Assembly (NCBI GenBank): GCA_964423565.1
Contig: CAYREZ010000001.1
Location: forward strand, 976-38,493
From: an uncultured Gammaproteobacteria bacterium
GTDB lineage: Bacteria > Patescibacteriota > Microgenomatia > UBA8517
Length of the DNA stretch: 37,518 bases
Reading direction: 5' to 3'
A program made the position numbers and the translations under genes. Each line of letters opens with the position of its first letter. Position 1 is the stretch's first letter. The notes beneath the pieces were generated by a model. That model saw only the letters and a list, made by a program, of their open reading frames with translations. It made no database searches and was not told where the DNA came from. Shown here in pieces: positions 2,550-36,500 of the stretch.

Positions 2550-2563
2550 TTTTAACTGTATAA

Positions 2564-3439: not shown

Positions 3440-3440
3440 A

Positions 3441-11212: not shown

Positions 11213-11231
11213 AGTCCCTATATACAAAATG

Positions 11232-14138: not shown

Positions 14139-14180
14139 CAATCGTAATAATATCACTCAGATAAGAATATTTGAACCTTG

Positions 14181-14201
14181 CAAGGAGAATCCTTTAAAGG
14201 T
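14181..14201 (+). repeat. REP-like 21-mer, copy 1 (upstream of transposase gene)
   Basis: CAAGGAGAATCCTTTAAAGGT. It can fold as AAGGA-GAA-TCCTT, or through the perfect palindrome CCTTTAAAGG. It is preceded by a second palindrome, CCTTGCAAGG (14176-14185). Confidence 0.8.
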
Positions 14202-14211
14202 AACATAAGTC

Positions 14212-17193: not shown

Positions 17194-18870
17194 TCAATTT
17201 GCTACGATCTGAAAATACTTATATCCATTTGTTCCATAAATTTCCTCGACAATATTTGACTCCTCCAATATTTCCTTATCAGTTCCTGCAAATAGCGCTC
17301 CCGGATATTTTACCCTATCTTCATCCCAATTAATCTTATTAAATTCAAACTTATCGAAATTTCTTACCGTTGAAAAATTATATGTATCCCGTTGTGTCAG
17401 CTCATGATTACCCTGAAACCTAGCCGGTGGATACTTAAGATAAAACAAAAATAATATATAAGGTTGATCATATCTATTACTAACGACTATTTTATTAAAT
17501 TTATCACCATTTTTCTCAACATAATCAACCAGCTCCTTTATCCCATATTGCGATGAGAAAGGATATTCTTTTGCCATATGAACCCAATACATATGCTCGT
17601 AGCGAGTGAAGTTCCAAATAACAAATAATCCAATAAACAAATAAACAAATGATTTGATGAATTTTGAAAATTGTTTGAACGCGTGTGAAGGAATTGATTA
17701 TATAGCAGATAAACCGGTGGCACTGATTATCGTAAGGGGGACTACCATATTTTGTGCACGGAGTGCATGCGGTGATTGAAAAGTAAGCGCCGCGCCTACG
17801 GGTGCGACAATCAACCACCATAAGATTAGAGTATAGGATTTAAAATACTGGGATAACGATTTAATTACAAAAATGATCCCACAGACAATAAATAGTATAT
17901 CAAATAAGTACATTTGCCCCGTTTCCGGCACTCGATTACGCTCTATGACATCTCCTGATAAAAAAAGAAATTCCCCGTTGTAATGCTTAACCCAGTTATT
18001 GGTAAAAGCCAAGCCATAATTTACCAATTTATTATGTATTGTTTTAGAAAATAAACCCTGAAAATTATTATGCTCACCCCTTTGTTCATTAGTCCTGGCG
18101 AGTGGCCCAGTATCTGCAAATAAGCCAACGCCTGCCATCCTCGATGTAATGTTTCCCTTTGTTAAATCTTTCGCCAACGGCATTAACGTAACCAATCCGA
18201 CTAGTGCCGCTAAAGCAAAATTTAGCAAATGTTTGCGAACATATTTAAAGTAAATAAGAAATAATCCGACTCCAATAAGGGGAGTAATTACGCGTGCAGA
18301 ATGATATGCGTATAAAGACAACGTAAAAACCAAAGAGCTTAAAAAAAGATATACTATATTGTTCAATCCTTTTAGGAAAAACCATAGACCTAATACGATA
18401 AAAAATGTCGCAACATTTACTTCCCATCCTCCACGCGAAAAATGTATATGCCAGGGGCTAATTGCAAGCAGAAAGCTTGCAATATGACCAGTGCCTAATT
18501 TCAAATCTCCAATTGCTAATTTCTTATTATCAAATAATTCGCCTACTAATAAATAAACCAGATAAATGGTTAAGAGCCCGAATAATGTCCCAGGAATTCT
18601 AACCGACCATGCATTTAACCCAATGAATTTTACAAAAGGTAAAACCATATAGAAATACAAACCAGGTTTATAATCGTTGAAAGATTGAAAGTGAATCGGC
18701 CAGGGATTACCATGCTCGTCTTTACCTGTTTCTAATAGTGAATAAGCGTTATAACCAATTGCAGCCTCGTCAGCATTTAAAGCAGGATAACTACCGAGTT
18801 TCCAGAACCTTAAAAATGCCGCCAATAAAATGATCAGTAGTAAAATATATTTATGATATTTATTTCCCAT
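17194..18870 (-). pseudogene. ArnT/PMT_2-like GT-C glycosyltransferase, paralogue A, interrupted by one in-frame TAA
   Basis: Track ORFs 17698..18870 (390 aa) and 17194..17640 (148 aa, TTG pseudo-start) are in the same frame. They are separated only by TAA (17700..17698) and 19 sense codons. The joined 558-codon frame aligns end to end with the intact paralogues (N-terminal DEAAIGYNAY, SPWHIHFSRG, C-terminal QPYILFLFYLKYPP). Confidence 0.65.
18461..18483. other. perfect 9-bp stem / 5-nt loop palindrome inside the paralogue A coding sequence
   Basis: Gene strand: ATTGCAAGC-TTTCT-GCTTGCAAT, encoding I-A-S-F-L-L-A-I. It is positionally homologous to the palindrome at 20189-20211. Confidence 0.8.
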
Positions 18871-20188
18871 GTTACATATAATGATATATCATACAGATGA
18901 CTATTTAATTTCTATAATACGAAAAGCAGTTTCACCATTCAAATATTTAATCTCATTTATTAAAGTGAATAATTTCGTATCGCTCGAATCTTGCGGCGGT
19001 ATTCGTACCGAATCGCCAATTATTAAAGATCCGCTATCACCGCGATTTAAAGACCAGTCTATGGGAACAAATTCAATATTATCAAGTTTATTGACATATC
19101 CAACATCGCCAATTAGACCGCTATCTACTAGCTTTGACTTTTTTTGATAAACGGCTGGCGGATATTTTTGGTAGAAAAGGAAATATATATAAGGTTGAGC
19201 AAATGATTGCTGGACTTTCACTGTAGTATAATTTTTTTGAATAGGAGTGACAATTTCGACCATCTGTTTATACCCATACTCCCAAAGTTTTGAGTTATGT
19301 TTCGAAAGATGAATAAAATAAGAATCGAGGTAATAGACAAGCGAACCAACAAACAAAATAGATATAAAACTAATAAACGAAAATTTCTTTAAGTTATTAC
19401 TTAAATTTTTATTAAACCCAAAAATATCAATAAGCCCAAAAGACGATAAAAATGTAAGGGGAATTACCATATTTAAAGACCTGATTGCATGTACTTGATC
19501 GCGGGATAATACTGCCGGAAGTGGTGCTAAAAGAAGCCATAACAAGATAAAATAAGTAAATTTATTCGACTTGCGGATGATAGAATTAAATCCGATAACA
19601 AGTAAAATTATATCTGATAGAAGTAGCATGCCATGATTAGGAGCAGAATGTCTTGGATTCTGCCAATCTCCTTCAAAGAACAAAAACCTACCCGAGAAGT
19701 GATTAAACCACCGACTCATTATTCCCCTTTTATAATTTAGGGGCTCGCTATGGAAAAGATAGTAATTTAAGCTACCAACTTTCTCATTCCCCTGATCTAA
19801 AAATGTCTGTAGGTATTCTTTAGTCCTAGGGTAGGAAAAAACATTGAAGACATTTAATCTTCCCGTTTGTCCAAAGTGAAAACTTATCAAAACTGGCAAA
19901 ACAATAATTAAACCTACTATCGTGGACTGTATCACAGTAACAAGGTTATTAGTAATAATTACTTTTGTTTCTCGCCAATAACCAACAATAAGGACAAAAA
20001 TAACAATTAATGTTGATAATTTAGCACCTTGGTAAGTAAGCACCGTCAGCGAAAAAAATACTGATGCAAGTATAAGGAATTTACTTTTATCCAACGCTTT
20101 GAGAAAAAAGTAAATTCCGAATAAAGTCAGAGTTAAAGCTAAATTAGCTTCCCAAGCTCCCCGGGAAAAATGGATATGCCCGGGATTA

Positions 20189-20211
20189 ATCGCGAGTAAT
20201 GAACTCGCGAT
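20189..20211. other. perfect 9-bp stem / 5-nt loop palindrome inside the paralogue B coding sequence
   Basis: Gene strand: ATCGCGAGT-TCATT-ACTCGCGAT, encoding I-A-S-S-L-L-A-I. It is unusually GC-rich for this sequence and directly abuts the repeat element at 20212-20276. Confidence 0.8.
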
Positions 20212-20276
20212 AATTTCCAATTTCAAACAGTCAGGCAAACCGACCCGAGCGAAGTCGAGGGATTTCCAATTTCCAA
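20212..20276 (-). repeat. Mini-element copy 2 (inverted relative to copy 1): direct repeat, 35-nt core, direct repeat
   Basis: Minus strand: TTGGAAATTGGAAAT, then CCCTCGACTTCGCTCGGGTCGGTTTGCCTGACTGT, then TTGAAATTGGAAATT. The core spans 20227-20261. It is 35 nt long, not a multiple of 3. Confidence 0.75.
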
Positions 20277-20632
20277 TATATTTTTTAATCTTATTTTTTT
20301 AACTATCAGATACATTAACCAGACAGCAATTACTCCCGCTATCGCACTAGGAAGTCTTACCGCAAATTCGGTTAATCCGAAGATTGCGATAAAAGGCACG
20401 GTGGTGTAAATATAAAAACCGGGTTTGTAATCCCCGAATGACTTAAAAATAACAGGTAGTAATTTACCGTACTCATCTCTTCCGGTTTTCAAAATAGAAT
20501 AGGCATTATATCCCAATGCCGCCTCATCCGGTGTTAAACTGGGCGGTAAACTCCCCAACTGCCATATTCTCAAAATTGCAGCTAATATAAGAATAGGAAA
20601 TATAGAATTATGAAATAAGAATTTTTTTATGT

Positions 20633-21277
20633 TCATACTTTAAACATAAACTTTTTTACAAATTTATTTACAGTCCCATGTTCGTCTCCAGTAACCACTG
20701 CGATTCCGCTTATTATCCCCTTGGCTATTGAAATTCCTTTTTGGTTATATTCCTTCTGAATTTTTTCTGCAGTTTTTTCATCCTTGAATCTAAGGAAGGT
20801 AAGATGTGGATGGTATTCAGTCATCACCTGAGGATAACCAAATGCTTTAATATATTCTCGTTGTCTGCCTGGGAATCTATTGGAATCTTTTAGTTCTATC
20901 CTATGTTTTTCACTGATATGACCTTCTCTTAAAGGATTAATAATTTTTAATACCTTTTTATGAATTGAATATAGCTGACTACCCTTCTTAAAATCTAATC
21001 CTACCCATCCCCGTTCTGAATAAAGTTTATTAAATTGTAATTCGAAAGGCGTTGTATTTTTTACAATACTTCTTAATAAACTGAAAAATTTCCTTTTATT
21101 TTTAGTAGGAAATTCGACTTTATAAATCGTGATATGAGCGAAATTTATTTTATTATCTATCTTAAAATAAATATCGCCTTTTGTAGAAACTTCATTTGCG
21201 AGCTGTTTAGCTAATTCAGATACCGATTTATTTGGTAATAAAATTATTCTGTAGGTAACAAACTTATCTTTTTTCAT
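20633..21277 (-). CDS. 2H-phosphoesterase superfamily protein (LigT / 2'-5' RNA ligase-like, cyclic phosphodiesterase-like)
   Basis: Two H-x-[TS]-x motifs are present: FAHITIYK and HPHLTFLRF. The ATG at 21277 (MKKDKFVTYRIILL...) is preferred over 21322. Overlaps with both flanking GT-C genes suggest translational coupling. Confidence 0.55.
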   Translation of the reverse strand: MKKDKFVTYRIILLPNKSVSELAKQLANEVSTKGDIYFKIDNKINFAHITIYKVEFPTKNKRKFFSLLRSIVKNTTPFELQFNKLYSERGWVGLDFKKGSQLYSIHKKVLKIINPLREGHISEKHRIELKDSNRFPGRQREYIKAFGYPQVMTEYHPHLTFLRFKDEKTAEKIQKEYNQKGISIAKGIISGIAVVTGDEHGTVNKFVKKFMFKV

Positions 21278-23003
21278 ATATTTCAAAGGCTGGTTTACCG
21301 TCCAGAAATTCAACATCTTCAAGTTTAGACCAACCGTTGGGCATATTTCCTGGGCTTGTTATTAATAAACACCTATTTTCACCAGCCAAACATTTAAACC
21401 TACTACCGTTCTCTAAAACAAAATCCTGCCATTCTTCTTCTGGGATATTCCAATCGTTAATAAAGTAAAATTTATCAAATCTATCTACCCAATACCAGTT
21501 TGATTGATTAAACCGAATTAGCGATGCATCTTTTTGGTATCTTGAAGGATTCCAAGGATAATTGACTAAAACGAAGATATGCGGTTCGCCGTACTTTTTT
21601 GTAAATATAATTCTGTCATAATCTTCATAATGCAGTTTCGCATAATCAACCGCCTGCTTATAGCCATACTGCCAACTCCATGAATAGTTTTTTCTATAGC
21701 TATTAAAATATTTTTTCCAATAATTTACCAAAGAAAAAGTTAAAACAGTTACATATATCAGTAAAAGAGCTAAAATCATAAACTTTCTTCTTCCGAGTTG
21801 TAACACTCGACTCAAACCCATTGCACTAATAACCATAGGCATGGGCAAAATAATTGATGCGCGAAGTACGTGTGGTGCTTCCCTAGTAAGAGAAGAGGGA
21901 ATAGTTGATAAAAAAAACCAAGATAAAATGAATACAGTTAGCCTATCTCTTCTTTTCAAGAGTGTGATAAAACCTAAAACCAAAAATGTCGCGTTAATTG
22001 TATATAGAACTCCAGCCCCCGGAACACTGAATTGATAATTTGATCCTCCTTCAAAAAATAAAAATTTAAAATTATAATGATCTAACCAATTACTGCCTAA
22101 GTGTCTTATAAAATAAGTGGGTCTGCTATAAACTAGCCTAGTTATTATATTAGGTAGCTGTGAATTTTGTCTGGATTCAATAATTTGTCCTACCGCCCCA
22201 CTATCAATTAGAGCAATCTTGGAGTATCTTGCTTGTCCAATAGGCTTAATTAGTTGATAAAACATCGGTATAAAAAATAGAAGAATAACGAACAAAGAAT
22301 AATAAAGTATGTGTTTTTGACTCCTATAAATTACTAGTATTTCTTTTCTATATAAAATTATTAGTACTACCATAAACAAAGGTATGAATATTCTCGCAGA
22401 ATTATAAGTCCAGACTGACAAACCTAATAATGTGGTGGATAGTAGCAAGTAACCAGCAACTTTTGGCTGCAAATGATTCGGAAAGTTAATAGATTGATTA
22501 ACAACTTTTAGAAAAAAATAAATTCCAGAAATAATGAATAATACGGCAAGATTTGCCTCGAATGCCGCACGGGATAAAAATAAACTCCAGGGCTCAACTG
22601 CGACAAGAAGTGCAGCCATTGTTGCAAGTAATTTTGGATCAGTTATTATTGGTTTGTTTTTACTACTGGGAAATAACTCAAGAACTAAAAGGTATGTAAA
22701 ATATCCTGATCCCACCCCTGCGAGTACGGAAGGTAGACGGACAGAAAATGTGTTTAATCCAAAAATTGCAATAGATACGACAGTAGTATAAATATAGACT
22801 GGCAATTTATAGTCACCAAAGGCTCTGAAAATACTCGGAAAAAGCCGATTCCATTCATCTCTGCCAGTTTTTAAAATTGAATACGCATTATAGCCGATAC
22901 TTGATTCGTCCCAGTTCAAAGACGGAGGATTACTGTCTACATAAATAATTCTTAAATATAATGCGATAGCTAGTATTAAAAATAGTACAATTTTATTTTT
23001 CAT
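21264..23003 (-). CDS. ArnT/PMT_2-like GT-C glycosyltransferase, paralogue C (intact)
   Basis: 579-aa polytopic protein. Contains N-terminal WDESSIGYNAYSILKTGRDEW, then EPWSLFLSRAAFEAN, and a C-terminal soluble domain (YGEPHIFVLVNYPWNP). Confidence 0.85.
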   Translation of the reverse strand: MKNKIVLFLILAIALYLRIIYVDSNPPSLNWDESSIGYNAYSILKTGRDEWNRLFPSIFRAFGDYKLPVYIYTTVVSIAIFGLNTFSVRLPSVLAGVGSGYFTYLLVLELFPSSKNKPIITDPKLLATMAALLVAVEPWSLFLSRAAFEANLAVLFIISGIYFFLKVVNQSINFPNHLQPKVAGYLLLSTTLLGLSVWTYNSARIFIPLFMVVLIILYRKEILVIYRSQKHILYYSLFVILLFFIPMFYQLIKPIGQARYSKIALIDSGAVGQIIESRQNSQLPNIITRLVYSRPTYFIRHLGSNWLDHYNFKFLFFEGGSNYQFSVPGAGVLYTINATFLVLGFITLLKRRDRLTVFILSWFFLSTIPSSLTREAPHVLRASIILPMPMVISAMGLSRVLQLGRRKFMILALLLIYVTVLTFSLVNYWKKYFNSYRKNYSWSWQYGYKQAVDYAKLHYEDYDRIIFTKKYGEPHIFVLVNYPWNPSRYQKDASLIRFNQSNWYWVDRFDKFYFINDWNIPEEEWQDFVLENGSRFKCLAGENRCLLITSPGNMPNGWSKLEDVEFLDGKPAFEIYEKR

Positions 23004-24687
23004 TATTATTTCCTGACCTTTTCGAAAAAGTAATTAAGTATATTATTACTAAAATTCCACAAAGGCTTATTAAATCAACCACCTTTCTGAAATTTGTTTC
23101 TGACCATAACGCCATAACCTCTTTTTCTCCTTTTAAAATTCGAAAACTAATATTTCCATATGGTTTATCGATACCGATATCTTTTTCTTGGCCATCAACG
23201 AATATTTTCCAACCTGGATAATAATAATTATTAAAAGAAATAGATCCTTCTTCTTCGCCGCTTATTTTCATTAGGTATTTTACCGAATTCAATTCCTTAA
23301 TTTCATTAATCGTTACGGTATTTGATGTGAATTTCTCATCCGGTAAGAAATTGGCTCGCCTATCGACCCACATCGGCAGAAGCAAATAGTCCTCAGAATA
23401 ATTCAGATATTCACTCGACAGAATCTCCGATTTACCAGAAACAGAAATATTTGGAAAGAATCTTTTTAGGTAATAATCGTCAGTGGGGTTAAAATATTCA
23501 CTTGGTTTAAAATAAAAAAATGATTGGCTAATAGAAAACATACCCAAAATAACTAAAAAGGTTTTAACTATCTTTGTTTTCGCATTAATAAACATCAGAA
23601 GTGATGAGCTTAGGAAAGTGGTAAAAAGCAGTAGTCTCCATGGAAACTGAATATAATCTACAAGTGGTAGAATATTCCAAACAAATGAAGATCTAATGTT
23701 CATTAGAAACATAAATCCCGCGAGTGAAAATAAAATAAATATTTTAAGAAATCTATTTTTCTTAGACATCAGTAGCGTTAGCGTTGTTACCGAAATAAGT
23801 ATCAAATTTACAATCCCAATCTGAAACGACAAATCATCATATATACCCGGATGGGAAGCCCCGTATCCCCAAGAAGGGAAAATCAGCTGTTTAATAAACG
23901 GGAAATGGTCTCTGTAGTTAAAGGGGGTTTGAGAAACTAAATTACTTTTTTCAATAAAAGCCGGTAACCAAAAATACGAACTTGCAGAAAGTGCTAATAA
24001 GACCGAGACAAAAAGTTTATAAATATTTGTAAAACTGAGGCTAAATCTGCATAATAATAGTGCAAAAAGGATTATCCAAGGAATAAAAAATATCGGTGCC
24101 AGGTTGTGACTCAATATCAATAAAGAAATTGCCAAAGACAAATAGCCTACATATTTAACTTTTCCTGTCTTAAGTAGTAGATAAGTAAAATAAGCAATTG
24201 CGGGAAAATATATAAAAGCAAAGAGTTCACCTAGCGCACCTCTAACATATAAATCTACTGCCCTGTAAGGTGTGTATATAAAAATCAAAGCTCCGACTAA
24301 ACTTTCAAATCTGCCGGTAAATAACCTCAACCATTTAAACATAAATAATGCTGAAAGTAAGACCGATAGCAAAAATAAAAGCTTTATTGAAAGGATAAGC
24401 GAACCAAACAATTTGAAAAATAAATATCCAATATAGTAAGGAAGCGGATAATAAAAATTAAAAAGTGGATATCCGAAACCAAAGCTCATATCCGGTGCCC
24501 ATCTTGGAGGAAATTGACCTGAATCAATTGCACGAATCATCTCAAAGAGATTTGCTATGTGAGGTTCGTCAGAAAAATGATAAAAATCACCCCTGATAAG
24601 CGGGTAAATTGCAGGTAATGAAATTACGATAAATACAATAACCCAAAATATTTTATAAGCTGATATCTTTTTTATTAAGTTTTTCAT
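22993..24687 (-). CDS. large polytopic membrane protein, GT-C-like (PTPS-related / YfhO-like class), tandem paralogue 1
   Basis: 564 aa. The N-terminal loop is HFSDEPHIANLFEMIRAIDSGQFPPRWAPDMSFGFGYPLFNFYYPLPYYIGY, followed by 10 or more helices and a C-terminal beta-rich domain with a final TM segment. It resembles the membrane '6-pyruvoyl-tetrahydropterin-synthase-related' family. Family assignment is from memory only. Confidence 0.55.
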   Translation of the reverse strand: MKNLIKKISAYKIFWVIVFIVISLPAIYPLIRGDFYHFSDEPHIANLFEMIRAIDSGQFPPRWAPDMSFGFGYPLFNFYYPLPYYIGYLFFKLFGSLILSIKLLFLLSVLLSALFMFKWLRLFTGRFESLVGALIFIYTPYRAVDLYVRGALGELFAFIYFPAIAYFTYLLLKTGKVKYVGYLSLAISLLILSHNLAPIFFIPWIILFALLLCRFSLSFTNIYKLFVSVLLALSASSYFWLPAFIEKSNLVSQTPFNYRDHFPFIKQLIFPSWGYGASHPGIYDDLSFQIGIVNLILISVTTLTLLMSKKNRFLKIFILFSLAGFMFLMNIRSSFVWNILPLVDYIQFPWRLLLFTTFLSSSLLMFINAKTKIVKTFLVILGMFSISQSFFYFKPSEYFNPTDDYYLKRFFPNISVSGKSEILSSEYLNYSEDYLLLPMWVDRRANFLPDEKFTSNTVTINEIKELNSVKYLMKISGEEEGSISFNNYYYPGWKIFVDGQEKDIGIDKPYGNISFRILKGEKEVMALWSETNFRKVVDLISLCGILVIIYLITFSKRSGNNNEK

Positions 24688-26347: not shown

Positions 26348-26353
26348 AAATAA

Positions 26354-28051: not shown

Positions 28052-28059
28052 AAGTTAAA

Positions 28060-29376
28060 TTATAACTTTGCCCTTATCATTTGTCGAAGATATAGTCGAT
28101 AAAAATAAATAAAGATAATAAAATTCACAAAACCTAATAGTCTCGGAGTAAGTCTGTCCTGATAGGCTAAAAAGGAAACTAAAATTGCTAATTTTGGCAC
28201 CCACCAGAAATTATAGAGGTTTAGAAGCGATATCAGTGAAACTGAAATATAAACCCAAATTAATTTTACGTGCTTTATGGTTAAAATTGTCAGTACCGGA
28301 AATAGCGGATAAAGATATCTCTCGTGCATGTTGGGAAGTAGCATAAAAGAAGAAAAAGCAGCGATTGTTAAAGTCCATATTAGTGAATTGTGACTGCTTT
28401 TTTTATACAATAAATACAGCGCGGGAAAATACGCTAGTGAAAATAAAATAAATCCCCAAGTTTTATACATTAAAGGCCCTAGATATTGTGTGTATGACCT
28501 TAAATGAATCGTTGCTATAGTTGCCCATATATTAAACGCGTTTGCTGTAATAAGGTGCTGTTGTTGCACATATACTTTATCGATATATAGTTTATACAAC
28601 CACGAATATGGTTCACCATGGGAAAAGGGTAGCGTAAAGATTCCGATCAGCATAAAAGAAATCAATATTGATCTTAATAGATTGAAAAAAGAGTATTTTT
28701 GTTTTAGTAAGTAAACCAAATATATAGGTAAGAATATTACCAAAGACAGTTTTATAAATAAGCACAAAGCTAGTGCGATGAGAGAAAATGTCAACCTCTT
28801 TTTTATTAGTAGATAAAACGAAAGCAGCGCGAAGAAATTAATTATAGAATCATATTGCCCCCAAACAGACGACGTATACCAAATAACCGGATTGTATAAA
28901 AAAACTACAAGTCCCAGTCTACTTACTATTTTAGCCCTATTCCCCTTTAATAAGATTCTTAAGTATTTATAAAGCAAATAAGCTATTCCAAAGTCAGCAA
29001 TAATACCCGGTAATTTAACCACTGCAGGATAAAGATTATGTTCAAAATATGTAATTATTCCGGAAGGAAATGCGGGTATTTTAATATTAATGAACCAAAA
29101 AAAATTGAAAATTGACTCAAATAATTTCCTACTAAAAGCAAAAATATAAATAGTTCCCGGAGGCTGGTTTGGCCATGTATAGCTCCAGATATTGGATTCA
29201 GGAGCATAAAATTTTTCCGGGCCATATTCAAAATAACGAATACCCCAATCTAAATGATTATTAACATCGGGATGCCAGACTATAAAAGAAAAGGCCAGTC
29301 TGAAAACAAAAGCCGCGATGATTAAAAAGACAATATTTCTTTGTTTACCTAAAAGTTTAATTATTAACTCCTGCAT
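28060..29376 (-). CDS. GT-C fold membrane glycosyltransferase-like protein (DUF2029/GT87- or Gpi18-like)
   Basis: 438-aa polytopic protein. The first extracytoplasmic loop is HPDVNNHLDWGIRYFEYGPEKFY...YTWPNQPPGTIYIFAF, the Y-x-Y-P-P-type loop of mannosyltransferase-like GT-C families. The specific family is uncertain. Confidence 0.5.
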   Translation of the reverse strand: MQELIIKLLGKQRNIVFLIIAAFVFRLAFSFIVWHPDVNNHLDWGIRYFEYGPEKFYAPESNIWSYTWPNQPPGTIYIFAFSRKLFESIFNFFWFINIKIPAFPSGIITYFEHNLYPAVVKLPGIIADFGIAYLLYKYLRILLKGNRAKIVSRLGLVVFLYNPVIWYTSSVWGQYDSIINFFALLSFYLLIKKRLTFSLIALALCLFIKLSLVIFLPIYLVYLLKQKYSFFNLLRSILISFMLIGIFTLPFSHGEPYSWLYKLYIDKVYVQQQHLITANAFNIWATIATIHLRSYTQYLGPLMYKTWGFILFSLAYFPALYLLYKKSSHNSLIWTLTIAAFSSFMLLPNMHERYLYPLFPVLTILTIKHVKLIWVYISVSLISLLNLYNFWWVPKLAILVSFLAYQDRLTPRLLGFVNFIIFIYFYRLYLRQMIRAKL

Positions 29377-31060
29377 TATTTGCTGTAAAAATATAAAATA
29401 TCGGAATATTGGTCGGTGAACTGATAACTTTTAAAAGCTTTAGATTGGAATTATTAAATATACCCGGGTTTGTAACATCTTTCTCGCCATTTGCTATGAC
29501 CAAGGTTCCCGGAGTTGCCAGATTTTCGATAGGCTTTGCTAACTCACCAAAATAATATTTGTCAGCCAAACTGAAACCATTCACGCCGTTAATAATGTTA
29601 TCTTCATACCTATCACCGCTAAATTGTTTTTGGAAAAGCCTCATATCGTATTGGGAGTAAAATAAAAAGCGAGGAAGCATTGGCTCATAGGTGCTGTCAA
29701 AAATCACCTTTTGATAATCATTTTCATTTTCATTAACATATGAAACCGCCTCCTCAAAGCCGTATTGAAAGAAACGCCAACTTTCATTTTTCCAAATGAC
29801 AAAATACCTGTGTATAAATCGGGTAATATCCAATACAGCAACAGTGATAAAAATCGCAACCAAAACCTTTTTCTTGTAGCCTTTTGTGCTTTCTAGCAGT
29901 ACTTTAAAGCCAATGCCGGAAAGTATTACCAAAGGTATTACCATCAATATTAACCGGGAAGCGTGGGTACCACCGTCTTTTGTTAATGCAGATGCAAGTG
30001 GTGATATCGCAAGAAATGAAAAAACCAGCAGATATTTTTCATTAGCTTTTTCTTTCGCATTTTTGTAAAAAAGAAACCACAAGCCAAGAAAGATAAGCAC
30101 TATATCAAAATGATACATCTGCCCGAACCCCTCAATACTCTGACGCATGTTTGGGTCGCCTTCTGTAAAAAGAAAGCTTACCGAGAATGACTTGACGTAG
30201 TTTTTCAATACGACTTCAGTAGCAATAGTTTTTCTGTTATAAAATACACGCGTAAGAAAAGATTCTGACCACCTTCGCCTCGCAACGACTTCGCCCATTA
30301 AAAAATCTTCCTGAATTGCACTTATATTGGAAAATCTTTGTGACGAAATCCCTTTATACGTAAAGATAATATAGGGTAGAAGCAGTAATAATCCCAATAT
30401 TACTAAAAGTATTAACTTAATAGGCTGATACCTAAATACTCGTTTACGATAAATTACAATTAAAGAAAGGGCAAAAAGTGGAGTAAATACCGTCGCGATT
30501 GCATACGAATAAAAACTCATGGCAAATAGAAAAGTGGAAATAAGTAAATATTTATACTCTTTAATCCCCTTCAAAAAAAACAGCGTTCCGCCAATTATAA
30601 AAGGAAGAATTATCCCGGCATCATTTGCCTGTCTGCTAAAGTTAATATGCCACGGCGAAAAAGCCAAAAAGATTGTTGTAATGAGTGCAAGTTTTTTGTC
30701 AAAAAGTTCTTTAACCAAAAAATAAAACAGGAGCAAACTTAATAAGCCCATTATAAGTGATGGGGGGCGGACTCCGTATGCGTTTAAACCGACAAGTTTC
30801 ACAAACGGGGCATCCAAATAAAGCTGCATGGGTAAACGATATTCAGAAAATGAGTGAAACATTATCGGATACCTATTACCAAAATAGTCTTTCCCGGTTG
30901 TTGCGATAGAGTACGCCTGAAGCCCGACGTCAATTTCATCTCCAAACAGTGAAATCGGTGTACTATCTATTTTCCAAACCCTGATAAAAATTCCTACTAA
31001 AAGTAAAAAAACGAATATAAACAGTCCTAATCTTGCTTTTAAAATTTTTGATAGTTCCAC
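29357..31060 (-). CDS. ArnT/PMT_2-like GT-C glycosyltransferase, paralogue E (intact)
   Basis: 567 aa. Contains FGDEIDVGLQAYSIATTGKDYFG and SPWHINFSRQAND. The variable loop is short (KELFDKKLALITT). Confidence 0.85.
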   Translation of the reverse strand: MELSKILKARLGLFIFVFLLLVGIFIRVWKIDSTPISLFGDEIDVGLQAYSIATTGKDYFGNRYPIMFHSFSEYRLPMQLYLDAPFVKLVGLNAYGVRPPSLIMGLLSLLLFYFLVKELFDKKLALITTIFLAFSPWHINFSRQANDAGIILPFIIGGTLFFLKGIKEYKYLLISTFLFAMSFYSYAIATVFTPLFALSLIVIYRKRVFRYQPIKLILLVILGLLLLLPYIIFTYKGISSQRFSNISAIQEDFLMGEVVARRRWSESFLTRVFYNRKTIATEVVLKNYVKSFSVSFLFTEGDPNMRQSIEGFGQMYHFDIVLIFLGLWFLFYKNAKEKANEKYLLVFSFLAISPLASALTKDGGTHASRLILMVIPLVILSGIGFKVLLESTKGYKKKVLVAIFITVAVLDITRFIHRYFVIWKNESWRFFQYGFEEAVSYVNENENDYQKVIFDSTYEPMLPRFLFYSQYDMRLFQKQFSGDRYEDNIINGVNGFSLADKYYFGELAKPIENLATPGTLVIANGEKDVTNPGIFNNSNLKLLKVISSPTNIPIFYIFTANNAGVNN

Positions 31061-31120
31061 AGTTCAATTTTATCTTAATCGAGGATAAACAGCCATATGA
31101 AGTTTAGCGATTGACTGAAA

Positions 31121-32959
31121 TCAACTCCAATTATCCAGCCAAGCTGAAAAAATAACAAGTTGCCATATGGTTCCCGAATGGTTGGTCTCGGATTTTTGAT
31201 GTTCACCCCAAATTTTCAGCACTTTATTTTTTGAAACATAATCGTTAAGACGCCTACTTTTAAGTTTAGAATAGGCAAAATCTTTTAAATCACTCCTTAG
31301 CCATTTTTCTAGAGGAATTCCGAAGCCTTTTTTAGGCCTTCTTGCAACATCCGGAAGTCTATCTTGTAGAAGTTTTCTGAGTTGAATTTTGGTTTGCAAT
31401 AAATTCACATGTGGCTTTCTCGTAGAAAAGGCATAATTGAGAACATCATTATCAAGAAATGGAACCCTAACCTCGAGAGAGTTATACATTGCAGCCCTGT
31501 CAACCTTAAAGAAAAAATCATCAGGCAGATAAGTATTAAAATCAATTGACTGCCCTGTTATTGACGGACTAAGCTTTTTCCAATTGTCACTCTTAGAATT
31601 ATGTTTTCTATCATAAGTATTACCTAAAAATTCATTTCCCAAAAAAAACGTTCTCATCCAATAAAGATGTCTGTCTTGTGGATTTCCCTTTTTCATTCCA
31701 GACAATATAATTTTTGCTAATCTTTTTTTCGGATATTCTTTAAATGACGTGGGAATTAAGTCAAAAAATATATCAGGAATTGAATCGATTATGTTTCTCA
31801 AAACGTCGTATGTAAAGTTAGGTAAAAAATTTAAATATCTTGCCAAAATATGAGCTTGATATATTGGATATCCTCCAAATAGTTCATCTCCTCCGTCACC
31901 GGACAAAACTACTTTGACGTACTTTCGCGCAAGTTTGCTTACTTTGTATGTCGGAAATAGTGAAGCGTCAGCGAAAGGTTCGTCAAGTTTTGAAGAAATT
32001 TCGTCAAAAATACTTAAAACATCTTTTGGGGAAAATTCATCGCTGTGGTGTTCCGTCCCAAGCTTTTTAGCAACGTAGTACGCATGCTTTGATTCATCAA
32101 ACCCTTTCTCAGAAAATCCTATTGAAAAAGATTTCAATTTCTCATATTTTGAAATGTAACTTGCGATTATACTTGAATCGAGTCCTCCGCTTAAAAAGAC
32201 GCCAACAGGAACATCCGCAATTAATTGTTTCTCAACTGCTTTGTTTAATAGCATGTCCAATGAGGATTGTGGATAATCCTTTTTTGTTTTTATATCAAAG
32301 TATTTTTTTATCTTAATCCCGGATTTATCAAAAATAAGAATATTCCCAGGCTTCAACCTGAAAATATTTGAATAAATCGAAGAACTACCAAGAATGTAAC
32401 CCAAATAAAAAAACGAGCTCAAACCTGTACTATCTACTCCTTTCTTATAACCTGGGCATTCCAATATGGTTTTTGGTTCCGAACCGAAAAATAACTTTTT
32501 TCCAATAACACTGTAGTAAAGTGGTTTGATTCCTGAACGGTCTCGGGCAATAAACATTCGACGTTTTTTCTCATCCCAAATCGCGAATGCAAACATGCCA
32601 TTCAACTTTGCAACCATACCCTCTCCATATTCCTCATACAAATGAACCAAGACTTCGGTATCGCTTTTGGTTTTTAATTTATGACCTTTCCTCAATAAAT
32701 CGTCGCGAAGATTTTTATATCCGTAGATTTCTCCGTTAAATACAACTACCACGCTGCCGTCTTCATTTTTTATCGGCTGATCACCTGTTGATAAATCGAT
32801 AATACTTAGTCTGCGGATTCCGAGACCTGCTGATTTATCATCATTAACGTACTCACCTGAAGAATCCGGTCCGCGGTAAACGATTGCTTTAGTCATTTTT
32901 CCCAAAATATTGGGATCTACTTTACATTCATAATCAACATACCCCGTTATTCCACACAT
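31121..32959 (-). CDS. asnB: asparagine synthase (glutamine-hydrolysing)-type amidotransferase
   Basis: 612 aa. The N-terminal nucleophile is MCGITGY (Ntn glutaminase domain). The PP-loop is VGVFLSGGLDSS. The start overlaps the upstream stop by 1 nt (TAATG at 32957-32961). In a glycan locus it may amidate a sugar rather than make Asn. Confidence 0.85.
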   Translation of the reverse strand: MCGITGYVDYECKVDPNILGKMTKAIVYRGPDSSGEYVNDDKSAGLGIRRLSIIDLSTGDQPIKNEDGSVVVVFNGEIYGYKNLRDDLLRKGHKLKTKSDTEVLVHLYEEYGEGMVAKLNGMFAFAIWDEKKRRMFIARDRSGIKPLYYSVIGKKLFFGSEPKTILECPGYKKGVDSTGLSSFFYLGYILGSSSIYSNIFRLKPGNILIFDKSGIKIKKYFDIKTKKDYPQSSLDMLLNKAVEKQLIADVPVGVFLSGGLDSSIIASYISKYEKLKSFSIGFSEKGFDESKHAYYVAKKLGTEHHSDEFSPKDVLSIFDEISSKLDEPFADASLFPTYKVSKLARKYVKVVLSGDGGDELFGGYPIYQAHILARYLNFLPNFTYDVLRNIIDSIPDIFFDLIPTSFKEYPKKRLAKIILSGMKKGNPQDRHLYWMRTFFLGNEFLGNTYDRKHNSKSDNWKKLSPSITGQSIDFNTYLPDDFFFKVDRAAMYNSLEVRVPFLDNDVLNYAFSTRKPHVNLLQTKIQLRKLLQDRLPDVARRPKKGFGIPLEKWLRSDLKDFAYSKLKSRRLNDYVSKNKVLKIWGEHQKSETNHSGTIWQLVIFSAWLDNWS

Positions 32960-33918
32960 TATAAATTAGTAAAATGCTTAATCTCATATATCGATTTCTT
33001 TTGTGATTCAAAATAAGTACGTACCTGAAGTTCCGCAAGTAGCCCCATCATCATAAATTGTAGCCCGACCAGTCCGAAAAATATTGCAATTAGGAAAAGG
33101 GGATCTTTGTGCACGAACACGCCTAAAAATAGCTTTTTATAGGCAGATCCCAATAAAGCCAAAGTACTGATAAGAATACTACCCAATCCAAATGTTCCGA
33201 ATACATAAGCCGGACGAGTACCGTAGGAATTTAGAAATTTAACAGTAATGATGTCGATCACGGTTTTTATTATCCTATCAAAACCGTATTTCGATTTTCC
33301 TTGCTTCCTTTCGTGGTGTCTGACCACAATTTCAGAAACCCTAGCGCCTTTGAGATAGATCAATACCGGCATAATCCTATGAAGTTCGCCGTACAACTGC
33401 AAATCTTTTAAGAACTCTTTTTTTACAATCCTGGCAGAACATCCTACGTCGTGATAGGGATATGAAAAAACGAGATTTATTGATAGATTTGCAAGTTTGG
33501 AGAGAAATGACCTGAATGTTGCATCCAGTCTATCTTTCCTCCAGCCAAATACCGCATCATAATCCTTATTAATCTCATCCAAAAACTTATTTATGTCCTC
33601 CGGATCATTCTGTAGATCGGCATCCAAAAACGATATATATTTCCCATTTGCATGGTCAATTCCGGCAACAACCGCCGCGGTCTGACCGAAGTTTTTAGTA
33701 AACTCAACCAACACTACCCCAACCCCACCAGAGTTAATTTTCCTTATTTCAGCTTTTAATGTTTCGATTGATAAGTCGGTGCTTCCATCATTAATATATA
33801 TAATTTCTGAAGATACTTTAAGGGATTTTAAGACTTTTAAAAGGTTTTTGTGAAGAACCGGCAAGTTTTTTTCCTCGTTGTAAAAAGGCACAATTACTGA
33901 AAGCTCAACTTTTTGCAT
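32959..33918 (-). CDS. polyprenyl-phosphate glycosyltransferase, GT2 (GtrB/ArnC/DPM1-like) with two C-terminal TM helices
   Basis: 319 aa. Contains LSVIVPFYNEEKNLPVL...IIYINDGSTDLS...NFGQTAAVVAGIDHANGKYISFLDADLQNDP...RKQGKSKYG, followed by two C-terminal hydrophobic helices (AYVFGTFGLGSILISTLALL and LFLIAIFFGLVGLQFMMMGLL). This is the hallmark architecture of the bactoprenol-phosphate sugar transferase family. Confidence 0.85.
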   Translation of the reverse strand: MQKVELSVIVPFYNEEKNLPVLHKNLLKVLKSLKVSSEIIYINDGSTDLSIETLKAEIRKINSGGVGVVLVEFTKNFGQTAAVVAGIDHANGKYISFLDADLQNDPEDINKFLDEINKDYDAVFGWRKDRLDATFRSFLSKLANLSINLVFSYPYHDVGCSARIVKKEFLKDLQLYGELHRIMPVLIYLKGARVSEIVVRHHERKQGKSKYGFDRIIKTVIDIITVKFLNSYGTRPAYVFGTFGLGSILISTLALLGSAYKKLFLGVFVHKDPLFLIAIFFGLVGLQFMMMGLLAELQVRTYFESQKKSIYEIKHFTNL

Positions 33919-33976
33919 ATTTTAAAAATTATATCTTAAAACTTGACTAAAAGCATATGTATCTGGCAACTTTCTC

Positions 33977-35710
33977 TTAGATCGAAAAGAGATAGAAAGC
34001 CGGTTCTCCCGAGGGATAGGAAATTGCCTTTACTAATACTAGCCCTTCGGGTGTTTTCTGTGGATCCATTATCAAATTGCCATCGATTTCTCTTGCCGCG
34101 GCAATATACAAGCCGTCGTCTGATAATACTTGTGACAAATTTTCAATTCCTATATCCACCTCAGGCTGACCAAAGTAATATTTCTCGATATGCTCTAATT
34201 CTCCAAAACCTTTAACAAATTCCCTTGATGTTCCTTTTTGCCAAATAGTTGGATCGTACGGGTAATAAGAAGCTAAAAAAATTCGAGGGTCATCGTTTGC
34301 ATTCGATAGAATTATCTTATTGTAGCGATTCTGATTTTCCTTAACTGCTGTTACAAGTTCTTTGTAACCTGCATGCCACGACCGTTCCGAATACCACGGG
34401 TTATGAATCCAATAAGTATGGCTATAAATCCCGAATTGAAAAATCCAAATTCCGAAAAATAGAGAAATAAAAACATATTTATATTTAGCCGTGAATCTAA
34501 AAATTGTCTCTGTTAACCCGTATGCAATAACTAGAACTATTGGCGGAAGAATTAGAATTAAGCGGGTTGCATGTTTACCTCCATCCCGTGTAACGGCGGA
34601 TGGAAATATTCCTGCAATAATCCAAAATAGTAAAAGATATTTTATTTTCCTGTCTAGACTGGATGACGCAAGTAAAATAACTCCCAGTAATAAAGCGATC
34701 ATTTCGACTTTGTAAAACTGACCTAGTCCACTTATAGAATGCCGTAAATTCGGATCCCCTTCAATAAATAGAAAGCCTGTCGAGAATGATTGTAAATAAT
34801 TATCTAAAATTTTCTCTTGCCAAATAATATACTTGTTGTGCATTAGGCGGCTGCTAATTTTTTGCCCAATACCACCTCCATATCTTCTCCTCATTTGAGC
34901 ATCGTCGAGCCTTAATGTTTGTATTGCGCCTATTGTAGTCGGATCAGTGAATATACTGATATATTTAAATCGAAAGGCGGCCCCTTGAAAAAAATTTACA
35001 TATATCAACGGTAACCATAATAAACAAAGTATTGAAAAAGTTAATAGTTTTTGTTTTACACTCATATTTATCTTTTTTCTAAACAGGTAAAATAAATAAA
35101 CCATCAATAAAGGAGTAAAAAGTTTTGCAGTACTATAAGACCATGGAGTTAGTAAAAAAAATAATCCTGATATCCATATATACTTTCCATCCTTTACTCC
35201 CTTGAAGAAAAAATAAAACCCGCATAAATATAAAAGTAATAGTTGAGTTACTTCAAAAGCTGCCCGTGAATACTGTAAATGCCAGGGCGAAAAAGCTAAT
35301 ATAAATGCCGAAAAAAGTGCAAATACCTCAATCTTCTCTCTGCTTTGATTTTTCCAATACCCACCAATCTCTACTACCAATAAATACAATAAATATACTC
35401 CCAGAATTCCGAATATCGCGGCTGGAAGACGTAATCCCCACGGCGTAATTCCAAAGATAAATACGCTCGGAATGGATGAGTATATATACAATGGTGCTCG
35501 GAAATCAGCATAAGATTGGAAATGTAAGGGTAAGAAATTTCCGAAATAATCGCGGCCCGTATTAATAAAAGAGTAAGCCTGATACCCTACATCTAATTCA
35601 TCGGAAAAAAGTGATACCGGAACTTTATCTAATTTCCACAAACGGAGTACTGCTGCTGAAATTAGAATTAATACTAATAAAATATTTTTTGTAATTTTTG
35701 GCCTGACCAT
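33977..35710 (-). CDS. ArnT/PMT_2-like GT-C glycosyltransferase, paralogue F (intact)
   Basis: 577 aa. Contains FSDELDVGYQAYSFINTGRDYFG and SPWHLQYSRAAFEV, with a C-terminal soluble domain. Confidence 0.85.
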   Translation of the reverse strand: MVRPKITKNILLVLILISAAVLRLWKLDKVPVSLFSDELDVGYQAYSFINTGRDYFGNFLPLHFQSYADFRAPLYIYSSIPSVFIFGITPWGLRLPAAIFGILGVYLLYLLVVEIGGYWKNQSREKIEVFALFSAFILAFSPWHLQYSRAAFEVTQLLLLYLCGFYFFFKGVKDGKYIWISGLFFLLTPWSYSTAKLFTPLLMVYLFYLFRKKINMSVKQKLLTFSILCLLWLPLIYVNFFQGAAFRFKYISIFTDPTTIGAIQTLRLDDAQMRRRYGGGIGQKISSRLMHNKYIIWQEKILDNYLQSFSTGFLFIEGDPNLRHSISGLGQFYKVEMIALLLGVILLASSSLDRKIKYLLLFWIIAGIFPSAVTRDGGKHATRLILILPPIVLVIAYGLTETIFRFTAKYKYVFISLFFGIWIFQFGIYSHTYWIHNPWYSERSWHAGYKELVTAVKENQNRYNKIILSNANDDPRIFLASYYPYDPTIWQKGTSREFVKGFGELEHIEKYYFGQPEVDIGIENLSQVLSDDGLYIAAAREIDGNLIMDPQKTPEGLVLVKAISYPSGEPAFYLFSI

Positions 35711-36489
35711 ATTATAAAGTTTATTAAATAATGTTTTAACTTACCGTGATATAAAATGCTCGAGGGAATCAACTGTTTCCATTCCGAGCCATATAAACTA
35801 TTATAGTCACCACTTGCCCCATGGACGTGTACTACTTCGCAGGCCGGCAAATAATAAATATCCAATCCAACTTTCTTTAACTTTCTACAGTAATCAATAT
35901 CCTCAAAGTACATGAAATAGCGCTCATCCAGGTATCCCACCTTATTTATGGCAAGCTGGGTAATAATCGCACATGCCATTACAACAGCTTCAACTTTTAT
36001 TGGGTCACGGGCATCTGGAGCATATTTATCCAAGATTCCTTTATTGAATAACCAGTATTGTGATATAGCCCGAAATACTGTAGGAAATCTAAAAACAGAC
36101 CCTTGTGTAGAACCGTCAATATTGCGTAATTTAGGTGCGACCATCCCTAAATTTTCCCGATCGTTTGCAAAGTTAATTAACGTGTCCAAAGTACCAGTTA
36201 TAAGTCTGGCATCTGAATTAAGTAATAGTTTATATTTACCTTTTGCAATTGCGAGACCCTGATTATTTGCTTTTGCAAATCCTAAATTCTGATTATTTAC
36301 AATTAAACTATAGTTTTGGATCTTTCCTTTCAAGTTCTCTAATGTTGGTAAACTTCCATCACTTGAGGCGTTGTCAATAATAATTATTTCCCGAGAAGCT
36401 TTGCTCTTATCTTCAACAACCGATCTAATGCTCTCCATGATGAGTTTATTGGTATTGTAATTGACAATTATTATTGATACATCTAGCAT
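35674..36489 (-). CDS. GT2-family glycosyltransferase (rhamnosyltransferase-like subgroup)
   Basis: 271 aa. Contains VSIIIVNYNTNKLIMESIRSV...IIIIDNASSDGS, LLLNSDA, and FEDIDYCRK. Confidence 0.8.
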   Translation of the reverse strand: MLDVSIIIVNYNTNKLIMESIRSVVEDKSKASREIIIIDNASSDGSLPTLENLKGKIQNYSLIVNNQNLGFAKANNQGLAIAKGKYKLLLNSDARLITGTLDTLINFANDRENLGMVAPKLRNIDGSTQGSVFRFPTVFRAISQYWLFNKGILDKYAPDARDPIKVEAVVMACAIITQLAINKVGYLDERYFMYFEDIDYCRKLKKVGLDIYYLPACEVVHVHGASGDYNSLYGSEWKQLIPSSILYHGKLKHYLINFIIWSGQKLQKIFY

Positions 36490-36500
36490 TGGAATTGTTT

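Follow-up and report, generated by a model that had tools for sequence, protein, structure and literature searches.

A dense, conserved array of GT-C-type membrane glycosyltransferase genes in a genome of the class Microgenomatia

The stretch of DNA analyzed here, 37,518 nucleotides long and hereafter called the window (G000:C1:976-38493), comes from a small genome of the class Microgenomatia and carries, at positions 17194 to 35710, an 18.5-kb segment in which nine genes for GT-C-type membrane glycosyltransferases lie on the minus strand. The segment is best explained as the central part of a large and ancient glycosylation island, typical of Candidatus Woesebacteria and of the class Microgenomatia, whose enzymes would make up a multi-step extracytoplasmic glycosylation line using polyprenyl-phosphate sugars, that is, a three-component type of system scaled up; we regard this explanation, island and glycosylation line together, as probable. 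A GT-C array of this density is not exceptional for its lineage.

The assembly comprises 986,154 bp in 99 contigs, with a GC content of 37% and a completeness of about 90%, and the closest homologues of the window proteins belong to Candidatus Woesebacteria from Rifle-type groundwater metagenomes. This agrees with the small genome (0.99 Mb) of the Candidate Phyla Radiation (CPR) type that had been supposed in a previous reading of the letters alone (hereafter the sequence-only reading). All but two of the 34 genes of the window are on the minus strand. The nine GT-C genes, already counted on one strand by the sequence-only reading and borne out by Pfam, blastp and two structure models, comprise six ArnT/PMT_2-like paralogues, two PTPS_related-type genes and one ALG6-like gene; they occupy about 15.0 kb, or 81% of the segment, which corresponds to a GT-C density about 16 times the genome's own average. 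In the order of the minus strand, from 35710 to 17194, the features of the segment are the following.

33977 to 35710, minus strand: E, ArnT/PMT_2-like GT-C, 577 amino acids (PMT_2 E 2e-4; DE motif in loop 1)
32959 to 33918, minus strand: ArnC/GtrB-type polyprenyl-phosphate glycosyltransferase, GT2, 319 amino acids (Glycos_transf_2 E 5.6e-28)
31121 to 32959, minus strand: AsnB-type glutamine amidotransferase, 612 amino acids (Asn_synthase E 3e-85, and GATase_7)
29357 to 31060, minus strand: D, ArnT/PMT_2-like GT-C, 567 amino acids (PMT_2 E 5.6e-15; AlphaFold2 model)
28060 to 29376, minus strand: ALG6-like GT-C of the predicted GT-C_B class, 438 amino acids (AlphaFold2 model and Foldseek; weak Alg6_Alg8)
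26354 to 28051, minus strand: C, ArnT/PMT_2-like GT-C, 565 amino acids, with the longest variable loop (PMT_2 E 2.6e-5)
24653 to 26347, minus strand: P2, PTPS_related-type GT-C, 564 amino acids (PTPS_related E 1.8e-3, below threshold)
22993 to 24687, minus strand: P1, PTPS_related-type GT-C, 564 amino acids (PTPS_related E 1.4e-9)
21264 to 23003, minus strand: B, ArnT/PMT_2-like GT-C, 579 amino acids (PMT_2 E 8.6e-4)
20633 to 21322, minus strand: LigT/2H-phosphoesterase-like gene inside the array (2_5_RNA_ligase2 E 2e-9)
18901 to 20636, minus strand: A2, ArnT/PMT_2-like GT-C, split into overlapping frames of 137 and 445 amino acids (Pfam, blastp)
20213 to 20276, minus strand: mini-element at the A2 break, a GC-rich core of 34 nucleotides (20228 to 20261) between two 15-nucleotide TTGGAAATTGGAAAT repeats
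17194 to 18870, minus strand: A1, ArnT/PMT_2-like GT-C, 558 codons in one frame with an internal TAA (Pfam, blastp)

GT-C fold and catalytic motif of the array proteins

Structure models were obtained with AlphaFold2 for D and for the ALG6-like protein, the other seven genes of the array being assigned by homology. The model of D (predicted local distance difference test score [pLDDT], 93.7; predicted template modelling score, 0.92) comprises some 11 membrane helices followed by an alpha/beta domain of about 135 residues at the C-terminus, and all 38 of its best Foldseek matches in the PDB are GT-C enzymes (E down to 2.8e-8), among them STT3/AglB/PglB, ArnT, ALG9/12, Pmt4, DPY19, AftA/B and Emb. 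The model of the ALG6-like protein (pLDDT 90.0; about 12 or more helices) has yeast ALG6 as its top Foldseek match (6snh; template modelling [TM] score 0.72/0.66, E 4.6e-8), followed by PIG-U, PimE, ALG3 and PIG-M. Furthermore, 6 to 10 hydrophobic segments could be recognized in the hydropathy profile of every GT-C protein of the array.

When D was aligned with 53 homologues from the databases and three paralogues of the window (57 sequences in total), D41 and E42, which lie in the first loop following helix 1, proved invariant, together with 19 other columns that include P136-W137, S142-R143, R242, G301 and R369. The D-E pair, the S-P-W-H..S-R block and the F-L-F.E-G-D block are kept in all six ArnT-like paralogues of the window. 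In the PTPS-like proteins, the acidic pair of loop 1 is D-E in P1 and D-D in P2, and the ALG6-like family has D37 and D43 as invariant residues. Structure comparison and the acidic residues of loop 1 thus uphold the GT-C identity proposed by the sequence-only reading: the array proteins are GT-C-fold enzymes with a conserved catalytic acidic motif in the first outer loop.

At the level of sequence families, the six ArnT-like paralogues are mutually homologous (blastp, E 1e-92 to 1e-24) and share 25 to 35% identity over their full length (34% for E and D), reaching 40 to 60% only in the N-terminal 100 residues or so; the range of 30 to 55% previously estimated by eye was therefore too high. Their PMT/PMT_2 E-values range from 5.6e-15 (D) to 8.6e-4 (B). 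The gathering score is reached by D (56.3 bits) and by A2n (29.7 bits for PMT and 27.6 for PMT_2), while A1n is above the cut-off for PMT (23.7 versus 22.7) and just under that for PMT_2 (26.0 versus 26.1); B (20), C (24.9) and E (22) are under the PMT_2 cut-off of 26.1. As for the PTPS_related family (PF10131), P1 scores 37.5 bits, above the gathering score of 26.4, and P2 scores 17.3, below it; the two proteins are 30% identical over their full length (578 columns). NCBIfam gave no usable name for any GT-C gene of the array and, in particular, no ArnT match; C and D show weak matches to TIGR03663 (Agl23, flippase-associated), with 32 bits against a cut-off of 126. The search of PDB sequences with the family profile of D returned only marginal matches to ArnT (0.027 for 5EZM) and AglB, with E-values of about 0.03, and nothing meaningful was found with the profile of the ALG6-like family.

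The protein encoded at 28060 to 29376 had been described as DUF2029-like in the sequence-only reading. Its GT-C nature stands, while its assignment specifically to GT87/DUF2029 does not, since ALG6 is its top fold match and its family members match PIG-U, Alg6_Alg8, GT87 and ALG3 about equally. The family counts 490 homologues, the best 120 of which are 50 to 60% identical to the window protein. Alg6_Alg8 (GT57) is matched by 11 of 41 family members (best E 3.8e-7), the window protein itself scoring 17.5 bits against a cut-off of 25; for GT87/DUF2029, the window protein has no Pfam match and 9 of 41 members do. On the basis of the model, the protein is most properly placed in the GT-C_B structural class.

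Distribution, age and variation of the island

The genome contains 26 PMT_2 matches, and an iterative search recognized 33 GT-C open reading frames, which cover 47.6 kb, or 4.8% of the assembly; further GT-C clusters lie on contigs C8, C13, C7 and C35. PMT_2 matches are present in all 40 relatives compared, which were taken from the family, the order and the class and have genomes of 0.6 to 1.3 Mb, with 9 to 40 matches per genome and a median of 25.5; 115 Patescibacteria sampled from beyond the class have a median of 3, and only five of them reach 13 to 21. Three relatives (G017, G008 and G018) were used for the comparison of the islands. Among the matches listed, 19 of the 25 of G017 fall in a single region of 120 kb, as do 19 of the 32 of G008 in 120 kb and 25 of the 31 of G018 in 140 kb, and the GT-C regions of the complete relatives (120 to 140 kb) account for 12 to 18% of each chromosome. 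The window and contigs C8, C86, C13 and C46 map by orthology into the single island of G017. The array that the sequence-only reading had called exceptionally dense thus has its like in every relative compared, and dense GT-C arrays in Microgenomates should be taken as the norm rather than as outliers.

The arrangement of the genes is conserved as well. The island of G017, which belongs to another genus, runs collinear with the window for some 24 kb, at identities of 34 to 59%, in the order GT2f, GT2e, E, another GT-C, ALG6-like, C, PTPS-like, B, A2, A1, GT2d, GT4c, V, Wzx, GT2c ... GT4b (V being a tenth GT-C gene of the window; the flanking genes are described below), and orthologues of V occupy the same relative position in G017, G008 and G018. 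In L020, an independent metagenome contig, the order is GT2f, GT2e, ..., ArnC, AsnB, D, C (42%), an ALG6-like remnant, B (50%), A2 (52%) and A1 (60%). The ArnT-like paralogues are 41 to 59% identical to their positional orthologues in G017 (B 41%, C 43%, E 48%), against 25 to 35% among themselves, and the G017 counterparts of A1 and A2 are intact, with 566 and 555 amino acids, respectively. In a phylogeny of 92 GT-C proteins from four genomes, which was built with FastTree only and whose long branches in other parts are not to be trusted, A1, A2, B, C and E each pair with the positional orthologue of G017 with support of 96 to 100 (C 100), and the ArnT-like genes of the window fall in one 28-member clade that spans all four genomes. 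Since the paralogues pair with orthologues of another genus and gene order is kept, the duplications predate the split of these genera, in agreement with the old expansion that had been proposed. The low identity of the paralogues (25 to 35%) and their pairing with orthologues of other genera led us to reject a recent tandem duplication; an origin of the array from misassembly or contamination was rejected because independent assemblies show the same order.

A part of the island varies. A different GT-C stands between E and the ALG6-like gene in G017; its orthologue in our genome sits on contig C46, and the number of PTPS-like copies differs between genomes. The ArnC-like, AsnB and D genes occur as the same trio in L020 (319 amino acids, 612 amino acids, then D), at identities of 67%, 70% and 63%, respectively, and many orthologues of D, 50 to 63% identical, are found in metagenome Woesebacteria. 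Among the 40 species-representative relatives, the best match of D reaches 38%, no better than paralogue E, and AsnB-like genes are present in 11 of 40, at identities of no more than 43%. Since D and AsnB have no close orthologue in these relatives and a different GT-C takes this place in G017, the trio behaves, judging from gene content, as an accessory cassette that is patchy across the relatives. AsnB-like genes appear to be recurrent accessory parts of GT-C islands. Contig C13 carries a second AsnB-like amidotransferase close to its GT-C cluster (C13:4775-5902), and the AsnB-like gene at G033:C3:398177-400027 is inside the GT-C region of that genome.

Two nearly identical records of the locus were also considered, namely L023, the ENA copy of the window's scaffold (named ANAN16-1_SAMN03202994...scaffold_868), and L022, a contig from another sample (ERZ27254728), which is 99.92% identical over 7.5 kb, with six substitutions and no change in gene content. 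The LigT-like gene (20633 to 21322) is present in both, could not be traced in the islands of G017, G008 and G018, and looks like a lineage-specific insertion. L022 (6345 to 6375) is without 49 nucleotides of the mini-element, that is, the 34-nucleotide core and one 15-nucleotide TTGGAAATTGGAAAT repeat, and keeps one repeat; other copies of the element are located in the GT4 gene at 3792 to 3861 and on contig C15. Judging from the two contigs, this is a true polymorphism between a filled and an empty site, and the element has therefore moved or been excised very recently.

As regards the two paralogues that had been reported as disrupted, the claim holds for A2 and is doubtful for A1. In the element-free L022, A2 is still out of frame (133 amino acids, then at least 413), with two TTGGAAA heptamers displacing the frame by 7 nucleotides from the one that fits the intact orthologue of G017; the breakage of A2 is therefore real in the population, the element being polymorphic. 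In A1, the TAA at 17698 to 17700 coincides with a scaffold gap of 10 Ns in L023 (7930 to 7960), and the flanking 30 nucleotides or so differ between the records (window positions 17672 to 17704), so that the stop belongs to a filled gap and may have arisen in the assembly; 69 further gaps of 10 Ns remain elsewhere in the genome. Among the matches listed, about 90 in the relatives are ArnT-like, and four of these are interrupted by a single TGA or TAA codon (G001:C2:119692-121368, G005:C11:135289-136992, G011:C18:11938-13449 and G036:C4:38160-39734). The occasional breakage of single paralogues, or assembly error, recurs across the family.

The sequence-only reading had further stated that the paralogues differ most in one loop and in the C-terminal domain. 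Both are variable, and the soluble C-terminal domain is the least conserved part of the ArnT-like paralogues. The loop, which corresponds to residues 120 to 135 or so of D and is longest in C, is a Lys/Arg-rich turn between transmembrane helices 2 and 3; helix order and the positive-inside rule suggest that it is cytoplasmic. If so, it would not be an acceptor-binding surface, and its variability would reflect tolerance of insertions and not diversification toward different acceptors. The picture of a diversifying array has to be amended likewise: the core is collinear with G017 and L020, with one-to-one orthologues, and variation is seen in the patchy trio, in the PTPS-like copies and in the 49-nucleotide element. 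A ubiquitous and invariant array, which the sequence-only reading had opposed to its own view, describes the lineage in good part, the array being ubiquitous and largely, not fully, invariant.

Proposed pathway and alternative explanations

The array is flanked by the following genes, which, with the donor synthase inside it, would contribute to the proposed pathway.

35674 to 37415, minus strand: two GT2 genes upstream of E (Pfam; position kept in G017, G008, G018 and L020)
10031 to 11227, minus strand: V, PIG-V/Gpi18-like GT-C, 398 amino acids, outside the segment (PMT_2 E 3e-4)
8736 to 10043, minus strand: Wzx/MOP-type flippase, 435 amino acids (Polysacc_synt E 2e-21; about 12 hydrophobic segments, some overlapping)
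7943 to 8773, minus strand: soluble GT2, 276 amino acids (Glycos_transf_2 E 2e-29)
1 to 7514, minus strand: cytoplasmic glycan-building block with FkbM methyltransferase, GT10, GT2, methyltransferase, GT4, GT2, short-chain dehydrogenase/reductase (SDR) and GT4 genes (Pfam)

Outside the array, the window contains Wzx, seven GT2, three GT4 and one GT10 genes (11 cytoplasmic glycosyltransferases, in keeping with the dozen or so previously counted, as the Wzx flippase is with its earlier identification), two methyltransferases and two SDRs, besides an aldose epimerase, an FAD oxidoreductase and a Y1 transposase-like gene. The PIG-V-like gene that had been pointed out was found as V, with about 10 hydrophobic segments (Kyte-Doolittle); its own Pfam match is a weak PMT_2 only, and a precomputed match to PF04188 (PIG-V/Gpi18, Mannosyl_trans2) is present in about 23 of its 120 best homologues, which their sources name Gpi18-like mannosyltransferases. 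Elsewhere, the genome encodes one Bac_transf initiating transferase, two Glycos_transf_4 proteins, five Wzy_C proteins and one GtrA-domain protein.

Some of the neighbouring genes deserve a brief mention. A hydrophobic open reading frame of 155 amino acids (7515 to 7982), located between GT4b and GT2c, has no Pfam match, and none of the islands of G017, G008 and G018 contains a counterpart. The Y1 transposase-like gene and the adjacent SDR gene (13392 to 14895) have counterparts side by side in G018, 63% and 50% identical (80769 to 82279 within the stretch 350001 to 490000), and none in the searched islands of G017 and G008. The FAD amine-oxidase-like oxidoreductase adjoining A1 (15868 to 17157) has a 55% identical orthologue in the island of G017 (76456 to 77748), about 15 kb from the A1 orthologue, and is therefore an island member whose position is not fixed.

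In the pathway that we propose, cytoplasmic GT2-type synthases would load single sugars onto polyprenyl phosphate, a step attributable to the ArnC/GtrB-like enzyme and, probably, to several short DPM1-like GT2 enzymes. The lipid-linked sugars would be flipped to the outer face of the membrane, where each non-redundant GT-C (ArnT/PMT_2-like, PTPS_related, ALG6-like or PIG-V-like) would add one sugar, in a linkage of its own, to a growing envelope glycoconjugate, whether polymer or protein. The core or primer is probably an oligosaccharide linked to undecaprenyl diphosphate, which would be made by the neighbouring GT2, GT4, GT10 and methyltransferase enzymes and exported by Wzx.

The GT-C proteins would use polyprenyl-phosphate-linked donors, the context for this being the adjacent ArnC/GtrB-like synthase (32959 to 33918). 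Residues 5 to 314 of this protein align with positions 7 to 309 of the 316-position ArnC model PRK10714 with 170 bits, below the equivalog cut-off, and the protein also aligns with PgfS; its C-terminal transmembrane helices, at residues 239 to 297, complete the architecture of GtrB, ArnC and DPMS. Of the two polyprenyl-phosphate sugar synthases proposed by the sequence-only reading, only this one has the full architecture. The other (7943 to 8773) lacks a transmembrane helix and matches PgfS and PpgS only in part; it was rejected as a confident second lipid-sugar synthase and can be regarded as a weak candidate. Short GT2 genes akin to it adjoin GT-C genes on contigs C86, C13 and C8. The ArnC-like gene overlaps AsnB by 1 nucleotide; the trio probably adds one extra, possibly amidated, sugar, and gene order suggests that AsnB might amidate a lipid-linked or a nucleotide sugar.

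Several observations weigh against the proposed line. That all the enzymes act on one product is an assumption, and the donor sugar and the acceptor cannot be read from the sequence, the pathway being predicted here from its genes. The frame of A2 is broken, which implies that not every step is essential. The TM-scores of D against solved GT-C structures are moderate (about 0.5), and B, C, E, P2 and the ALG6-like gene stay under the Pfam gathering scores, their assignment being by homology to neighbours, motifs and two models only. Finally, the window has no match to GtrA, the dedicated small flippase, Wzx/MOP (8736 to 10043) being the only flippase there; the single GtrA_DPMS_TM match of the genome is on contig C47.

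The setting of the locus, amid classic polysaccharide genes (Wzx, GT4, GT10, methyltransferases), speaks against a different explanation, according to which the paralogues are protein O-glycosyltransferases that work in the manner of PMT, PglL or TMTC, each on different secreted or surface proteins such as pilins, S-layer proteins or adhesins. PMT and PMT_2 are indeed the best Pfam families, the D-E loop motif is a hallmark of PMT, the fold matches include oligosaccharyltransferases and Pmt4, the PgfS model matched by the GT2 enzyme belongs to a protein-glycosylation system, and the soluble C-terminal domains of the ArnT-like paralogues (about 135 residues), which diverge from one paralogue to the next, could bind an acceptor. 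However, no MIR domain emerged from the Pfam scan of the window proteins, the soluble domain of D being C-terminal instead, no STT3 match is present in the genome, and about 30 acceptor-specific protein glycosyltransferases in a genome of some 1000 genes would be unprecedented; on balance, we hold this explanation to be unlikely.

We give still less weight to two further explanations. The array could be a rapidly diversifying, strain-variable kit of surface antigens under host or phage pressure, in which case the lack of orthologues of ArnC-AsnB-D in the 40 relatives, in spite of 63 to 70% identical orthologues in another Woesebacterium, the variation between genera in PTPS-like copy number and in the gene between E and the ALG6-like gene, the presence or absence of the 49-nucleotide element between contigs 99.92% identical and the internal stops in some relatives' orthologues would find a ready place. 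This is improbable in view of a core that is collinear across genera with a one-to-one positional orthologue for each paralogue, of duplications as old as 25 to 35% identity indicates and of near-identical contigs that differ by six substitutions in 7.5 kb with unchanged gene content; moreover, the variable loop is probably cytoplasmic and the A1 stop may be an artefact. Equally improbable, in our opinion, is that several members have the GT-C fold without being transferases and act as scaffolds or as translocators of lipid-linked sugars, in the way of lipid-binding subunits akin to PIG-U or of flippase-associated proteins akin to Agl23. In favour of this, the ALG6-like family matches PIG-U, a non-catalytic GT-C-fold subunit, as often as ALG6/8, C and D show the weak Agl23 matches, and the window is without a dedicated GtrA flippase. 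Against it, the acidic residues of loop 1 are invariant in both modelled families, the preference of the ALG6-like model for the enzyme ALG6 is wide (E 4.6e-8 versus 5e-3), and the Agl23 matches are far under the cut-off.

If the extracytoplasmic glycosylation line is retained as the probable explanation, its meaning goes beyond the window. Although CPR bacteria have lost the greater part of their biosynthesis, about 5% of the DNA in this class is retained for membrane glycosyltransferases of conserved order and identity, and such conservation across genera implies a costly and selected surface structure, which likely mediates attachment to hosts or particles, or protection. It is tempting to go further, although we rate this at slightly less than an even chance, and to hypothesize that Microgenomatia devote 12 to 18% of a chromosome of about 0.8 to 1 Mb to one conserved island of some 20 to 35 non-redundant GT-C enzymes, which would form a single extracytoplasmic line, a lineage-defining trait, for a very complex envelope glycoconjugate neither described nor chemically seen. 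This would be a bacterial counterpart of the pathways of the endoplasmic reticulum (ER) lumen or of mycobacteria. The array enzymes represent a large untapped set of GT-C specificities, and the three genes of the ArnC-AsnB-GT-C cassette form a compact unit suited to testing in a laboratory host.

Comparison with known systems

The kinds of enzymes involved are known, while their scale, fixed order and class-wide conservation were not found described in the literature searched: a full-text search for GT-C expansion in CPR bacteria, Microgenomates or Woesebacteria returned no description, a study of CPR cells contains nothing on glycosyltransferases (PMC6744442), and "29 genes of glycosyl transferases" are mentioned in passing for one Microgenomates genome (PMC7143001).

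The scheme of three-component extracytoplasmic glycosylation has been reviewed and extended, including pentofuranose systems, by Kelly et al. in 2024 (PMC11127046). The array follows the same logic. It shares with the three-component systems (GtrA/GtrB/Gtr* of Shigella and Salmonella, CsbB-GtcA-YfhO of Firmicutes and ArnC-ArnT) a GtrB/ArnC-type synthase beside GT-C enzymes, within a Wzx-type polysaccharide locus. However, those systems add one side-chain sugar with one GT-C, whereas nine GT-C genes are found here in 18.5 kb, and about 26 to 30 in a genome of 1 Mb, with perhaps five or six donor synthases; in addition, GtrA is missing from the window, and the GT-C set is an ancient fixed series, not a seroconverting accessory. 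With ArnT itself (GT83; PDB 5EZM/5F15), D shares the GT-C_A fold (TM-score of about 0.5), the PMT_2 match and the neighbouring ArnC-like synthase; different from ArnT, its profile match is limited to an E-value of 0.027, it is recognized by no NCBIfam ArnT model, and it is built of some 11 helices, with an alpha/beta domain of 135 residues at the C-terminus. Since CPR cells have no outer membrane (PMC6744442), lipid A, the acceptor of ArnT, is not expected here.

The enzymes of arabinogalactan, lipomannan and lipoarabinomannan synthesis in mycobacteria and corynebacteria (EmbA/B/C, AftA-D, PimE and MptA-C), which use decaprenyl-phosphate sugars, likewise act outside the membrane as a series of non-redundant GT-C enzymes on one envelope polymer. 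Tandem GT-C paralogues are also known in mycobacteria as embCAB, and the fold matches of the window models include AftA, AftB, Emb and PimE. Different from the mycobacterial set, the array shows no orthology to it at the sequence level, has a density per megabase several times higher and belongs to a CPR bacterium without mycolate-type genes. The set of the eukaryotic ER lumen (ALG3/9/12, ALG6/8/10, PIG-M/V/B/Z, PMT1-6 and STT3) also brings together GT-C_A enzymes (here the ArnT/PMT/STT3-like ones) and GT-C_B enzymes (here the ALG6-like and PIG-V-like ones) and builds glycans from lipid-phosphate monosaccharides, as the array would do, and ALG6 is the top match of the protein at 28060 to 29376; the array differs in that it is bacterial, its genome has no STT3 match, and the similarity is at the level of the fold only (9 to 16% identity). 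By analogy, the nearest systems in logic would be the mycobacterial arabinogalactan and lipoarabinomannan enzymes and the ALG, PIG and PMT enzymes of the eukaryotic ER lumen.

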